Of a stretch of 41,026 nt of DNA, positions 30,001 to 39,000 are shown in pieces. The stretch spans positions 1-41,026 of the forward strand of contig JAYPIC010000012.1 in NCBI GenBank assembly GCA_038127595.1, given 5' to 3'. The DNA comes from a bacterium. GTDB lineage: Bacteria > Fidelibacterota > Marinisomatia > Marinisomatales > UBA1611. A program made the position numbers. Numbering within the stretch: position 1 is the first letter of the stretch; each line of letters starts with the position of its first letter.

Positions 30001-33000
30001 CTCCTGAATCATCAAATCTATAATCTACCCAGGCAATAAATGCACCGCCATTTCCATCTTCAATTGCAACAGGATCCTCTTGTCTTCCAGGTAAATTTGT
30101 AATTACAGCCCCATTGTCTCCCCAAGTAAAATTTCCATTTTTATCAATCTTATGAGCAAAAACATTCCTAACACCGTAACGTGTATCCGACCATACAAAA
30201 ATCGCAGAGCCATCTAAGCTTGGAGCTACAGTTCTATACCACTCGACATGCACCCCTTGTCTTATAGGTGATGCTTGATCAAATGTAAATGCATCTGCTT
30301 TTATTAAAGAAAGGGAAAATAAAATAATTGCTATCCAAATTTTCATCAGAAAAAGTCTCCAGTGTAATTGTTAATATTTAATTTTTGTGACCTGCAAACC
30401 AGATCTTGTACATATTAAGATATGGTCGCCCCAAAAATATGTTTTATATACGTATCCTACATCAAAGATCCCTTTTGATATAGGACTTAAAGGATCCGAA
30501 ACATCATAAAGTGCTAATCCACGGGAACCCAAACTAAGCACCGCTACATTACTCTTTACTGATACATGATCTACAGTTAAATCTTCAGCAAAACTAACCG
30601 CTACACCTTCACCAGTCCTAATGGATTCTAAGCTAATAAAATAAGCCCCAAAATCATCACATGCTATGTAAGCACCATCATCAGTAATAGATACCTGCTC
30701 AGCATTACCATCTAAATCAAATTTAGATAAAAAAGAAGGCTCACCACCTGAATTTTCATCTGATAAATCATAAACCAAATTATAGAACTCAACACCTAAT
30801 TGATCCACGGCCATTGCAACAATATCATTATCATTACGTAGAGGAAAAGATCTTGTTGCATCAATACCTAATGGTTTTCCATCCGTTAGAAGTTCACCAC
30901 CAATGGTTGGCATCCAGTTAATTATTTCTAGATTAAATACAACTGTAGTATCCGACCTGTATGTCCCCCACTTTAAACCATCATCATTATCAGCTACATA
31001 CATAGTAAAAGTATTATTAGAGCTTGGAAATGAAATATAGTCTTTAGTCCTATCGCTCATGATTTCATTTCGATAGATAAACTCGCTACTGTCACCAAAA
31101 TAAAATATTTTAACTTTTTTATTTGATTCTGTGACAAAAATAAGGTCATTCACACTATCTCTTTGGACAATGGATATATCATCGAATTCAATGTAGGACC
31201 CATCTTGAGAGTAGCCTAGGTATTCATGCAATTTATTCCCTGAATTCAAGTCCCAAACTTGCACACCAGCTTGGCCAGCAGCCACAAAAGCTTTATTGCC
31301 ACTTACTGAAACATTTCTACAAAAACCTTGAGTGTCAAATAGCTCTTTTTGATCAATTGACCAAAGTCCCTCATCAACAGGCTCCATGCATGAGAAAAAC
31401 AACATGAAAATCGGAAAAAAATGCAATTTCTTAATATTTATCATAGGAAAAACCCCACTTAATTTTACACCACAGCTGAGTCTGATTAAAACTTTTTAGA
31501 TCCCGTACCCACTCATAAGCAGAATCAGTATTTCTTGAACGAAAACGAGCACTGACTATGACACTTAGATCGTCCCACAGCTCTTTATCAACCCAAAAAG
31601 ATAATTTACTATCGGTATGATCCCTTCCAGAATGAAGTATATCATTGGCTGCTTCTGCTTTGTAATATCTCAACTCTTGCCTGAAGGAGAAACCAACGTG
31701 ATCAAATAATGAAATAAAACTTTTAAGTTTGACAGGTACATACCATTCTATTGTCTCATAGGATCTATCAAAGTCGCTTGATACTGCAGTCTTTTGGAAA
31801 GAAATATTTTTTGCAGTACCTCTACCCATTTGAAATGCAATTGTACCTACTTTTTTTATCTTTTTATTGATCTTTAGTCTTAAATAAAAAATATCTAGGT
31901 CGAATTCAGAAAATGGATTATCATAATAACGCTGTAAAAATCCAGCTCCAATTGAGTACCAATGCCTACGATCTAACCTATTTGTAAAGTTTAAAAATTG
32001 ATCATTGTCCGAAAAATTACATGGCTTCAGTTCATTTAGAGATACATCTCTATCAATGTAATGACGCAAGTAATAACTATTAAGATGTCTTAATGAATAT
32101 TTAATATTTCTATAAGCACCCCACTTATATTTTAGAGTGAAGCTACCAGACCAATAATCTTTATTAACGTTATGAATGTAATCAGAAACACTAACCATAG
32201 AACTGAATGCAATTTCTTTGTTTCCTGATATAAGTAGTGTTTTGCTTGTATTGATTTGAAATTTATTTATATAGCTATCAAGTTTCTTAGCCCCTCCCAT
32301 GTAATTGACATCAGAAGCTGCACTTTCAATTTCTTGCGATGAAAACCTCATAACATTATCATCATATCCCCCATGATAACTCAAACTAAAATTCAAAGGA
32401 GTAGAGGCATCAACCACACAGAAAAGGACTAAACTATATAAAATAAAAAGAAAGCGCATCAGTATAACATAAAACGAGTAAGGATAGCTTTTCCCTCATC
32501 AAAAACTTCAATAGAATAACTATTTTCTCCTTTGGGAACTTTTAACTCACAACTTCGCCATTTGCCAGGCACAATATCAGGTTTAGATCGAACCTTGGAA
32601 CTGCTTGATCGCTCTGTGTTAAAAAAATATGTACCAACAACTTTTTGTCCACTTTTTACATGAATTCTGTAAGATTCTTGGCTTCCCATCTCCTCTGAAA
32701 ACATAAGCCTACTTATAATCCGTAATGTTTTTGGACCAGTTGCTTTTACTTGAAGTGGGATATTCTTGCTGCACTCAAAATATTGTAATTGTTTGTTACC
32801 AAGTTCAATATCTACACTGCTTTTATGGACCATTGGGGTTATTGTTTTCTGATTTTTTTTCGGTGTCTCAAACTCCTTAGATAGTAATCTTAATAAGACT
32901 GGGTATTTTAGATTATCTCCTTTTAAAACCTCAATAGTATGGCTTCCTTTTGGTAAATTAATAAAATAGTTGCCAGAATATGTGTATCTATGCTTTGGAT

Positions 33001-36000: not shown

Positions 36001-39000
36001 GAAATTTAAATTCAAAAAGACCGATAATAATTAAAACTGTAGCAAGGGCCCCGAGAATTATTAAGGGCGAGATTAGCATTACCGGTCGACTCTAACTATT
36101 CTACTGATCGTAGCCCATAACAATTTGGATAAGCCTTACCATATCCAATATATTGACCATACCATCAGAATTTATATCTGCGAGATAAGGATTAAAGTTT
36201 GTCTGATCTGCAACAATGTGATCAATCAGAATGAGTAAATCATTAACATCAATCATACCATCTGTATTCAAATCTCCATCTAAACGCATTTCACTGCCTC
36301 TAGTAGTAATTAAAATTGCAGTGCCGTCTGACAAAGGCATAGCAGCATCAGCATAGGAATTATTAAAAGTGTATTCCAAACCTCTAGTCATTGTGTGATC
36401 TTCAATGCCTACGGTACAATAATTTCCATGAATCTGACTCCAGCTGTAGCTTCCTGTCGTATTATTGTTAAAATCAAGGTATTGAATCAAAATCTCACCA
36501 TCTCCAGTTGGTGTTGTATAGTACATGGGGTCTCTTAAAATGACCTGAAAAGTTTCAGAGGTATTATTCTGAAATGTGCGAACTCTTGACCATTGAACAA
36601 TAAAAAGCTTATTAATCTCATCATACCAGGTGTACACTCTTCCTGAATTTGTTGTTTTGAGATCATCCCAAAATACAGCGACCATTTTTCCTGGTCCCCC
36701 AGCACCTGGTAGAGGATAATTTCTGAATGAACTAAGTGTGGTCTCTCCAAACGCTATCCAACCATTAGAACAGATACTTAACCTTTCATAGTCTTGACCA
36801 TAAAATCTAAAGTTAAAAGGTAGGTTTACTGTCTCTACATCATCACCATTATCACCATTATCGCTTAAAGAACTTAAATGAGACCCATTACCATCATATC
36901 TGCTATCAATTTCTATCCATTCATATGACGGTGCTATTAGATAATCAATATCACCACTATCGTAGATGTAATATCCATAGTCGTCAGGACCCATCGGGTC
37001 TGTTTCTGTAGGAATTCCAATTTGCAGAGGTATAACAGATGTATTTGAATACCCATCCTCTGAACTTAAAGAAACAATTATATTTGCTATTGTGCCAGGA
37101 ATAATATCTTCCTTTGCTTCAATGACAAAAGAATCACCACTGTTTGAACTTGAACCAAAACTATTTGGGTAAATAGATGACCATGATGCGGTATTATCAA
37201 TTATTTCTATTGCTTGAGAAGCAGAGGTAATTACGCCAGTAATATTTTGTGCTGTAGTAGAGCCTATATTATGTAGTTCAATGTGAACGTTAGAGGTTTG
37301 TCCGCTAGATAACACGTCTTGACTACTACCTGTAACATTAATACTATAAGCGTATAAATTCTTACCTGCTACTTCAAGTTCAAGGTACCCTGTAGAGACA
37401 TAGCCACTATCGTTGGATAAGGTAAGCATAAGCTTAATGATAGATTCATCTGTTACGCTATTACTTACGTTAAAAGTATATGGATTAGATTCATTACTGA
37501 CCATACCAATTAGACCTATATCTCCGTAATAAAACGAATCATTTATAATTGTCACGTTGGCATTCTCGGAGGTCAATGTACCTGTAATTTGTGTTGCGTT
37601 TGCATTTCCATAGTTAGATACTGGTATAATGAGATCAACGACCTCACCAGAATTAATTTGGCCATCTCCATTACCCTCTGAAGAACCTAAGCCATTTTCA
37701 GTGAAAGATATTTCTTCGGAAAAGACATTAACGCTAGCGCCAGGATTGTAGATTTGGAAAGAACTCTGATAGGGATAGTGATTTTTCTTGGTAACGGTAA
37801 CAAGCACTTCACCCTCTTCAATAGTAGGGATAATTAATCTTACTTGTCCATTAGAATCACTATATCCAGATTCAAGTATTGACCCTTCCTTGTAAATGGT
37901 AATCCATGCATCTGCGATTGGATTTCCACCGCTATTTGTTAAAGTAAAATCAATAAAATTTGTTCCTTTTGTGATAGAATAAGGATGAGCAACATTTAGC
38001 ATCTCAGGGTAGTCTGTCCACATTTGTAAAGATGCATCTCCCATTAAACTATTCCAATGCGTAAACGTAGATACCCATTGATTAGGATTAGTGGGGTAAG
38101 CTCTGGACAACCATAGCTTACCTGCCATTAAAGCACCTCCAACAGAGTTAATATTCTGCACCAATGCTCCATGATAGAAGCCCATGTCTACCATATTATT
38201 AAACATAGTATGAGTTCCTAATGTAGCAGTACCTATAGAAGCGACAGCAGCCTTGGGATTTGAGGCTGTACCCGCCCTTAAAAAAGCTTCAGATATAGAT
38301 TCTTCAGTACCAAATGAACCAGTTCCGCAAGTAATTACAGTTGCAATTGGGAGCATAAATCCGTTATTGGCATCTCCAACATCCGCACTGGTATAACCAC
38401 TGACGCCATAAAAACCTCTGTAATTAAAAAACGCTAAACCATCACTCAAGTTACTTGTCATTTGACTTGGAAAATCCCCACCATATACAGTGCGAATGTC
38501 TTCATAGCCATGGTTTTGAAGAACTTCTTTGATGTTGTCATTTGTGATAACGCATGACACACCAGAGGTTGAAGGGTCCCCAATAAGCGCAGCTCTTTTA
38601 AACCAATTCTCTCCCATGTAGGGGTTCGATTCATAATTAACAGTCTTACTTATGATTGTTTGCAGGTGACTCTGACTGTCAAAAGATAACCTGCCAACAA
38701 ATAATTCTGGAAAAAGATCATTCCCAACTAAAGTAGCATATGGGTGATCGCCCTCACCATTGTAACCGCTCCAATTTTCAAAATGCGTAGGGATATCATA
38801 ACTACCCTCCGCATCGCCAATTATTGTTACATACTCAGGAGGACTATCCCATGCCTCGTAGGCTGTTTCAATGTAATTTTTTAAATTATTCGCATTATTA
38901 ACTATTGCAGAGCTGGATACATAGTTAACCTCGTATCCCATTCTTCTTTTCCAATCCATCAAAACCTCAACAGTACCCAACAAATTTCCAATGTTATTAG

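Follow-up and report, generated by a model that had tools for sequence, protein, structure and literature searches.

The locus studied here offers one candidate pore and one candidate adaptor for the passage of polyglutamate across the outer membrane. It lies in the window, the whole 41,026-nucleotide stretch of DNA that we analysed, from a bacterium of the order Marinisomatales. A first-pass annotation had proposed that six genes of the window form a diderm export route for a poly-gamma-glutamate capsule in about half of this order. From gene identities, operon layout, co-occurrence, gene fusions, predicted fold, charge and remote homology we infer a polymer and its export: it is on balance probable that PgsBCW makes a gamma-glutamyl polymer and that g595 is its outer-membrane pore. 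If true, barrel-based polymer export would be extended from polysaccharides to a polyamide, via a smaller, 14-stranded barrel.

A wide distribution of the pgs/cap genes is already documented (PMC5542703, PMC4497714, both in the parts available), and in the accessible text of PMC13721041 and PMC10897055 polyglutamate synthesis and anchoring are treated for one-membrane bacteria only. Our literature searches on pgsW/TIGR04332, on polyglutamate in Marinimicrobia or related phyla, and on diderm polyglutamate export found no paper on this module, within a coverage that left out most subscription papers.

A translationally coupled operon with a polyglutamate synthase

The six minus-strand ORFs pgsB-pgsC-pgsW-g596-g595-g594 occupy positions 30371-36079, as first annotated, and every pair of neighbours overlaps by 1-23 bases (8 bases for pgsB/pgsC). 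The six-gene operon is real, and all six genes are translationally coupled. The gene order previously reported from pgsC to g594 was the same in 20/20 loci outside this family but within the order, and one of these carried an extra gene between g595 and g594. Metatranscriptome contigs from four runs of four studies span the region (30, 30, 23 and 26 of 30 bins with depth), and gene junctions are bridged by some of them; contigs of this kind cannot show transcription and are not counted as support here.

Table 1. Genes of the locus, with positions in the window and the matches or models that describe them.
Feature	Position	Strand	Evidence
g593, 1005-aa secreted repeat protein with type IX secretion C-terminal signal	27329..30346	-	TIGR04183
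g594, lipoprotein with LVIVD/WD40-like beta-propeller	30371..31444	-	LVIVD E 5e-4, below cut-off; WD40 weak, best E 4e-5
g595, outer-membrane beta-barrel, candidate exit pore	31431..32459	-	model pLDDT 92.5, 14 strands
g596, secreted, very basic, two repeated ~130-aa beta-rich domains	32459..33337	-	internal repeat HHalign probability 99.4
pgsW	33315..34484	-	TIGR04332 297.1 bits, cut-off 100; adjoins pgsBC
pgsC, membrane subunit, 147 aa	34462..34905	-	TIGR04011 120.8 bits, cut-off 96.45; PF14102
pgsB, poly-gamma-glutamate synthase, 393 aa	34898..36079	-	TIGR04012 408 bits, cut-off 222.7; PF08245
Gingipain-like C25 protein with C-terminal dockerin	36101..39706	-	PF01364; directly upstream of pgsB

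The names pgsB, pgsC and pgsW hold, all three genes scoring above their NCBIfam cut-offs. The pgsB product is a Mur-ligase fold amide ligase with an N-terminal membrane anchor, and the PgsW model (pLDDT 88.9) shows membrane helices 21-40 and 351-383 flanking an alpha/beta (Rossmann-like) domain, which is enzyme-like in a protein with many invariant polar residues. Translation of pgsW may in fact start at the TTG at 34469, because some homologs begin one residue after this position. Foldseek returned nothing for PgsW at E 0.001 and the best fold match reached Z 7.5, a result that does not show a new fold. A relation of PgsW to polysaccharide co-polymerases was dropped, as the fold-match lists gave no support. 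Sequence searches of solved structures with the g595, g596 and PgsW profiles and with PgsB gave nothing useful.

The locus shares with the Bacillus systems PgsBCA(E) and CapBCADE a PgsB and a PgsC above the TIGR04012 and TIGR04011 cut-offs; the CapsuleFinder PGA model has this pair as its mandatory parts (PMC5542703, as far as its text was available). It differs from them in having PgsW instead of CapA/PgsA and no CapD-like gene in the locus, in a host with an outer membrane, and in an operon that runs on into a barrel and secreted proteins. We found no match to capA/PgsA (PF09587) in this 95.8% complete genome, while the control matched in 7 of 14, and the sole gamma-glutamyltransferase gene (PF01019) sits on another contig; for these two reasons the label 'capsule' is not established for this system. 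With the pgsB-pgsC-pgsW cassette defined around TIGR04332 the locus shares all three families, in the same order. The NCBIfam models cover those three genes only, and neither Pfam nor NCBIfam has a name for g596 or g595. In the mechanism we favour, PgsB and PgsC with PgsW would polymerise glutamate via gamma-amide bonds at the inner membrane, the two-helix PgsW would fill the place that CapA/PgsA has in Bacillus, and the polyanion would be released into the periplasm.

A 14-stranded barrel with a cationic polar face

The barrel g595 matched no Pfam or NCBIfam family. The 16 strands reported earlier are ruled out, since model and alignment both give 14. The monomeric porins CymA and OmpG are indeed the best structural matches (CymA Z 24.3, rmsd 3.3, 285 aligned; OmpG Z 21.2), at an identity of 8-10% and with a common fold that shows no function. 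CymA itself is an uptake channel. Ranks three to eight are taken by FadL/BamG-type barrels, and PgaA (Z 14.6) and BcsC (Z 14.3) also matched. Strand 1 begins at residue 22, right after the signal peptide, and the model has no helical N-terminal domain. Arg279 and Arg309 are conserved.

The polar strand face of g595, taken as the lumen face from strand alternation and not from coordinates, carries 22 K/R against 9 D/E, and K/R exceeded D/E on this face in 40/42 homologs. AlgE, PgaA, BcsC and PelB likewise combine an inner-membrane synthase with a co-encoded outer-membrane barrel of charged lumen. As in AlgE, PgaA and BcsC, the barrel here comes with a synthase and its estimated lumen face is opposite in charge to the expected polymer; a complementary charge of this kind has been argued for secretion barrels (PMC9603273, in the part available). 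However, in known systems the exit barrel linked to a synthase has 16-18 strands and a TPR scaffold spans the periplasm (PMC9601211, likewise in part), compared with 14 strands in g595 and no TPR family in g596, g595 or g594, and the polymer here would be a polyamide. The strand number, together with CymA as the best fold, counts against g595 as an exit pore.

Remote homology points towards export. Eight of 99 g595 homologs matched PF10082 (BBP2, best 1e-4) and 8/99 matched TIGR03014 (EpsL, best 1e-5), and weak g595-profile matches in three genomes were PF10082 barrels whose genes neighbour Poly_export and Wzz genes (HHalign P 95.4, E 2e-8). Judged by these matches, g595 is a remote relative of the BBP2/EpsL polysaccharide-export barrels, with which it shares the strand-1 motif region in alignments. 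It differs from them in being shorter and in matching neither family itself. Those barrels are paired with short OPX proteins; no OPX or Wzz/co-polymerase gene was found in this locus, and the two Poly_export genes of the genome are elsewhere, on other contigs.

Conservation in g595 peaks in outer loops 1, 4, 6 and 7 and not in the periplasmic turns, a pattern also compatible with surface binding or gating. Together with the CymA fold, it would suit a barrel that holds the polymer at the surface, as Wzi anchors and does not export (PMC9601211, in the part seen), or that re-imports gamma-glutamyl oligomers in the way CymA takes up cyclodextrins, with export by another route. Diderms that carry a second type of pgsBCW without a barrel nearby would fit as well. 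We nevertheless regard such a holding or uptake role as unlikely: the kin of g595 are export-linked, this operon type is not accompanied by a hydrolase or an inner-membrane importer among the loci compared, and the basic domain fused to some barrels would be periplasmic.

A protein translocon, either Slam/type XI-like or PorV-like, that takes g596 or g594 to the surface for polymer binding is more doubtful still. Type XI barrels are 14-stranded (PMC8406197, from the accessible part), a lipoprotein gene adjoins the barrel and in this order comes after it, FadL/BamG-type folds are among the structural matches, and one ESM Atlas neighbour cluster of the barrel carries PF04575 on 19% of its members. 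In contrast to Slam and type XI barrels, none of the 99 g595 homologs matched PF04575 at E 0.05, there is no N-terminal TPR domain, and no cargo gene is fixed: the barrel persists both in loci lacking g594 (0/40 in Cloacimonadota) and in genomes without g596. A general type IX part is ruled out for g595, which is not order-wide as SprA is (147/151 order genomes, our control gene), and the four matches to the PorV family (PF19572) in this genome are genes elsewhere, none of them g595.

Barrel and synthase occur together within and beyond the order

Across the 151 order genomes, this one included, g596 was found in 74, g595 in 73 and pgsB in 77, and g596 occurred in 24/28 genomes of the family, again counting this one; the estimate of about half of the order therefore stands. 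Barrel and pgsB were found together in 71/151 order genomes and were both absent from 72/151. In five of the eight mismatches the locus was cut by a contig end (G101, G120, G105, G025, G138), two genomes (G026, G087) held a different, long-branch pgsB type, and one (G141) gave a partial match. Such co-occurrence inside the order is limited as evidence: the unrelated-looking g593 is equally tight, and related genomes are not independent.

The linkage extends well beyond the order. In a sample of 101 Cloacimonadota genomes, 93 had barrel and synthase, 7 had neither, and one had the barrel alone, on a 2.8-kb contig. In the class of G155 both barrel and pgsB were found in all genomes (16/16 and 16/16). 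The pgsBCW-barrel linkage was seen across several phyla at 14-20% identity with changing flanks, and the barrel was retained where it had moved away from pgsBCW (G187, G198, G244). It is very improbable that these genes are neighbours by descent alone, with no shared function. Within the order, g593 belongs to a larger block that comes and goes as a unit, as descent alone would have it; against this stand the linkage over phyla at such low identity, the g596-barrel fusions and the joint presence where the genes are unlinked.

Several cases count against g595 as the pore. Five genomes (G151, G152, G153, G265, G274) carried pgsBCW-g596 without a true barrel match. The second, long-branch pgsBCW type, found in Cetobacterium and three order genomes, had neither g595 nor g596 nearby and was accompanied by ggt and desuccinylase-like genes. 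The capBC homologs of Francisella are not tied to a polyglutamate capsule, according to the part of PMC2897883 available.

Export through g595 remains the best reading, and the proposal of a diderm export route is better supported than when first made: the barrel follows the synthase across phyla, its pore face is cationic and its remote kin are polysaccharide-export barrels. The proposal gives way on g594 as a core part, on restriction to this order and on the capsule as established. The 14-stranded g595, with an inner face rich in conserved Arg/Lys, would be the outer-membrane pore for the polymer. Going by these counts, roughly half of a common marine order and some nine of every ten Cloacimonadota sampled could coat themselves with polyglutamate or shed it.

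A basic protein encoded between PgsW and the barrel

Mature g596 has a net charge of +25 and a pI of about 10, and 93/99 homologs are net positive. It had been described as tandem CBM-like sandwiches. The duplication is borne out by the internal repeat, but the protein has no Pfam or NCBIfam family, no Pfam family matched convincingly (weak Ig-like Pfam matches in 14/99 homologs), and its matches in the ESM Atlas were unnamed clusters only.

In four cases (L100, L110, L144, P0185) g596 is naturally fused to the N-terminus of the barrel, and we place it on the periplasmic side because of this arrangement. There it is a candidate periplasmic adaptor or polymer guide that would take the chain at PgsW and lead it to the pore. 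It would not always be needed, as no g596 match was found in five barrel carriers; going by these searches, some carriers can do without g596. A screen for long barrel fusions found none, and it was insensitive, because it missed the known fusion P0185. In-frame read-throughs between PgsW and g596 (P0223, L114) retain the signal-like segment of g596; they could reflect lost stop codons or errors and are not counted as support.

An accessory lipoprotein and the flanking genes

No Pfam or NCBIfam family matched g594 above threshold. Its description as a lipoprotein-like propeller is supported by Cys19, invariant in 30/30 aligned homologs, and by the weak WD40 matches. It was present at 47/48 loci of its own lineage, 4/18 other loci and 0/40 Cloacimonadota loci, which rules it out as a core export part across phyla; g594-profile matches in pgsB-negative genomes were partial and covered the C-terminal repeat only. 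It is a lineage-level accessory neighbour, not a core export component, and within this lineage it may act at the surface or in the outer membrane.

The six-gene limits first drawn are thus too wide for the cross-phylum core, from which g594 drops out, and too narrow for the order, in which the C25 gene and g593 are equally conserved. The C25 protein lies upstream of pgsB in 20/20 order loci (small ORFs intervene in one of them) and g593 follows g594 in 20/20; g593 occurred in 72/151 order genomes, and 70 of these 72 also had pgsB. In other lineages the C25 protein was found at 10/74 loci; at many of the 74 little upstream DNA was available. Alignment with gingipain R showed that the catalytic Cys is retained and the His position is Phe here and an aromatic residue in most tallied homolog motifs, so that the His-Cys catalytic pair of a gingipain-type C25 protease is incomplete in this gene.

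These flanks raise the question of whether the product of PgsBCW is not free high-mass polymer but short gamma-glutamyl chains linked to some part of the envelope, be it protein, lipid or type IX cargo, with barrel and C25 protein serving attachment. The lack of a capA match in the genome, the invariant polar residues and enzyme-like domain of PgsW, and the constant flanking by C25 protein and type IX cargo in the order are consistent with it. We hold attachment to be improbable, given that PgsB scores far above the equivalog cut-off, that the C25 protein lacks the gingipain catalytic His and that most Cloacimonadota loci are without C25/type IX-type neighbours downstream.

Export through g595 could also serve a protein-polyglutamate surface coat, built by the block from the C25 gene to g593: the exported polymer would be coupled to type IX-secreted proteins, or be an anionic anchor for them, and the C25 protein and the propeller lipoprotein would do the coupling. 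We regard this as a speculative extension with little chance of being correct. It draws on the neighbourhood, namely the block intact in 20/20 order loci, g593 with pgsB in 70/72 genomes, the C25 protein at 10/74 loci elsewhere, and the SprA and PorV-family genes that this genome carries.

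Operon layout and flanking genes

The first-pass annotation had proposed a six-gene operon, and six ORFs lie there in the same orientation, with successive genes sharing 1 to 23 bases. Its names for the synthase genes also held, with NCBIfam matches of 408 bits for pgsB (cut-off 222.7), 120.8 bits for pgsC (cut-off 96.45) and 297.1 bits for pgsW (cut-off 100). Neither g596 nor g595 matched any family in Pfam or NCBIfam. Downstream of the operon come three genes whose products carry type IX secretion signals. Metatranscriptome contigs cover the operon region, which does not show its transcription.

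Coordinates and lengths of the features discussed
Feature	Position	Strand	Length	Remark
Six-gene operon	30371-36079	minus
g596		minus	292 aa
g595		minus	342 aa
g594		minus	357 aa	LVIVD match below threshold
Gingipain-like C25 gene	36101-39706	minus	1201 aa	about 20 bases upstream of operon
Second gingipain-like C25 gene	21817-24996	minus

The C25 gene and g593, the type IX-signal repeat protein, stood on either side of the operon in 20/20 loci of the order Marinisomatales, so order-level conservation alone cannot single out export parts. For this reason g594 is rated accessory. No full-length g594 turned up outside the genomes that have the block. At L099:11640-14396, after the barrel gene, a g594-like propeller is joined to fibronectin III and FGE-sulfatase domains. 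Both C25 proteins of the window retain the Cys and carry an aromatic residue at the gingipain R catalytic His position, with an Arg two places ahead of it; this pattern is frequent in homologs adjoining pgsB. In locus L032 the assembly has pgsB, pgsC and the C25 gene all in fragments, probably through sequencing frameshifts.

Co-occurrence and gene order

Among 151 genomes of the order, pgsB was found in 77, g596 in 74, g595 in 73 and g593 in 72. Both g595 and pgsB were present in 71 and neither in 72, and the 8 mismatches comprised 5 contig ends, 2 cases of a different pgsB type and genome G141. The type IX translocon SprA was present in 147 of these 151 genomes, and therefore missing sequence does not explain the absences of g595 and pgsB; among the streamlined genomes (about 1 Mb), 25 of 26 had SprA. 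Since related genomes are not independent, co-occurrence is given as counts, without a statistical test. G047, a 92% complete genome of the same genus, had no match to pgsB, g596, g595, g594 or g593, which may reflect loss of the block in one piece inside a single genus, or a gap in the assembly.

Gene order was read from the best 80 of 187 loci found with PgsW, excluding those cut too short from each count. After pgsW, g596 followed in 56/56 loci of the host's lineage and 20/20 others with room, the barrel in 51/51 and 15/18, and g594 in 47/48 and 4/18. In three loci (L067, L069, L188) an opposite-strand gene of about 420 aa sits between g595 and g594. Among 101 Cloacimonadota genomes, 93 had pgsW, 94 the barrel, 93 both and 7 neither; 40 of the 93 loci, chosen by handle order and contig size, all showed the order pgsB-C-W-g596-g595 (40/40), and g594 came next in 0/40. 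Many Cloacimonadota (L134-L163) carry a conserved gene of about 100 aa after the barrel gene, and it still adjoins the barrel in some genomes where the barrel lies away from pgsBCW (L121, L127). In the class of genome G155, pgsW and the barrel were both present in 16/16.

The barrel was far from pgsBCW in genomes G187, G198 and G244. That the genes merely hitch-hike together is highly improbable. We found no g596 match at E 0.1 in G187, G198, G174, G241 and G220, and pgsW runs directly into the barrel gene in four loci. Five genomes (G151, G152, G153, G265, G274) have pgsBCW-g596 and gave no true barrel match. A long-branch pgsBCW type (G026, G087, a second copy in G059 and a Cetobacterium plasmid) adjoins ggt and desuccinylase-like genes with no barrel nearby, and thus two-membrane cells can carry pgsBCW without the module. 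Loci L129, L130, L131 and L113 hold this second pgsBCW type with gamma-glutamyltransferase and succinylglutamate-desuccinylase-like genes, joined in L129 by a diaminopentanoate-dehydrogenase-like gene; G059 carries both types.

The outer-membrane barrel g595

The AlphaFold2 model of g595 (42-row alignment, pLDDT 92.5) showed 14 strands instead of the 16 originally counted; strand 1 begins at residue 22. The top folds named earlier were recovered, with Foldseek ranking OmpG and CymA first (E 1e-8 to 2e-8). A wide fold search gave CymA at Z 24.3 (rmsd 3.3, 285 aligned), OmpG at Z 21.2, FadL and BAM-associated barrels at Z 16-17 and PgaA at Z 14.6.

The polar strand face, assigned by estimate from hydrophobic alternation along the strands, carries 22 K/R vs 9 D/E, and K/R exceeded D/E there in 40/42 homologs; PMC9603273 argues that the charge lining the lumen of secretion barrels complements that of their polymer. 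N35 and S40 are the same in all 99 homologs examined, and D61, F183, E185, D187, Y234, D273, R279, R309 and K322 are almost invariant. Many conserved residues lie in outer loops and the periplasmic turns are variable. A surface anchor or uptake pore is an unlikely role for g595.

PF10082 (BBP2 barrels) was matched by 8/99 homologs (best 1e-4), TIGR03014 (EpsL) by 8/99 (best 1e-5) and PF04575 (Slam/type XI barrels) by 0/99. Weak matches of the g595 profile in three other genomes were true PF10082 barrels, and scans of their neighbors showed genes for Poly_export and Wzz; profile comparison with these three barrels gave probability 95.4, E 2e-8. Judged from these weak matches and the profile comparison, g595 is a remote, smaller relative of polysaccharide-export-linked barrels, outside the PF10082 and TIGR03014 families.

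Like AlgE, PgaA and BcsC of synthase-dependent export, the module would serve polymer export, but g595 lacks the strand-number and TPR features given for them in the available text of PMC9601211. With type XI barrels it has the strand number in common, but it has neither the domain nor the TPR region of those barrels as described in PMC8406197. A translocon for g596 or g594 is an improbable function.

The basic protein g596 and the proposed route

The two halves of g596 are homologous to each other (HHalign 99.4). The mature protein has a net charge of +25 and a pI of about 10, a charge density reached by 1/244 secreted ORFs of the genome (ORFs crudely picked), and net positive charge was found in 93/99 homologs. 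The family counts 856 representatives at 50% identity (E up to 0.001), and the number of domains in its members ranges from one to at least four. In a Cloacimonadota clade (L100, L110, L144) and in protein P0185, a g596-type domain is fused ahead of the barrel; because barrel termini face the periplasm, according to a figure legend of PMC9601211, we infer that this domain is periplasmic by default.

The reading we favor, as the probable one, is that PgsBC(W) would make a gamma-glutamyl polyanion, g596, where present, would guide it through the periplasm, and g595 would let it out of the cell. Glutamylation of an envelope component instead is improbable. PMC2897883 shows that capBC homologs need not yield a known capsule. 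Passages of PMC5542703, PMC10897055, PMC4497714, PMC3815934, PMC3796261 and PMC13721041 deal with polyglutamate systems and name no outer-membrane part. Targeted literature searches, covering listings and the openings of abstracts, returned no description of a pgsBCW-barrel module, which is a real, apparently undescribed variant of barrel-based polymer export, a function we infer.

PgsW and synthase partners

The PgsW model (pLDDT 88.9) places a membrane helix at each end of an alpha/beta domain and had no clear match in fold searches. The genome, 95.8% complete, was searched for capA and gave no match; the genes for glutamate racemase and a single gamma-glutamyltransferase sit on other contigs. 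In the class of G155 (L202:6556-7497, L203, L204, L205, L206), genomes encode another PgsW paralog (about 300 aa) that stands alone, away from pgsBC; it has a signal-like start, lacks the second membrane helix and often lies beside genes that by the look of their sequence are hydrolase-like and recombinase-like. Locus L132 (G148:C35) carries the complete operon a second time, in divergent form; PgsW of this copy is enlarged by an insertion of about 220 aa, and in the PgsB tree the copy clusters with other families.
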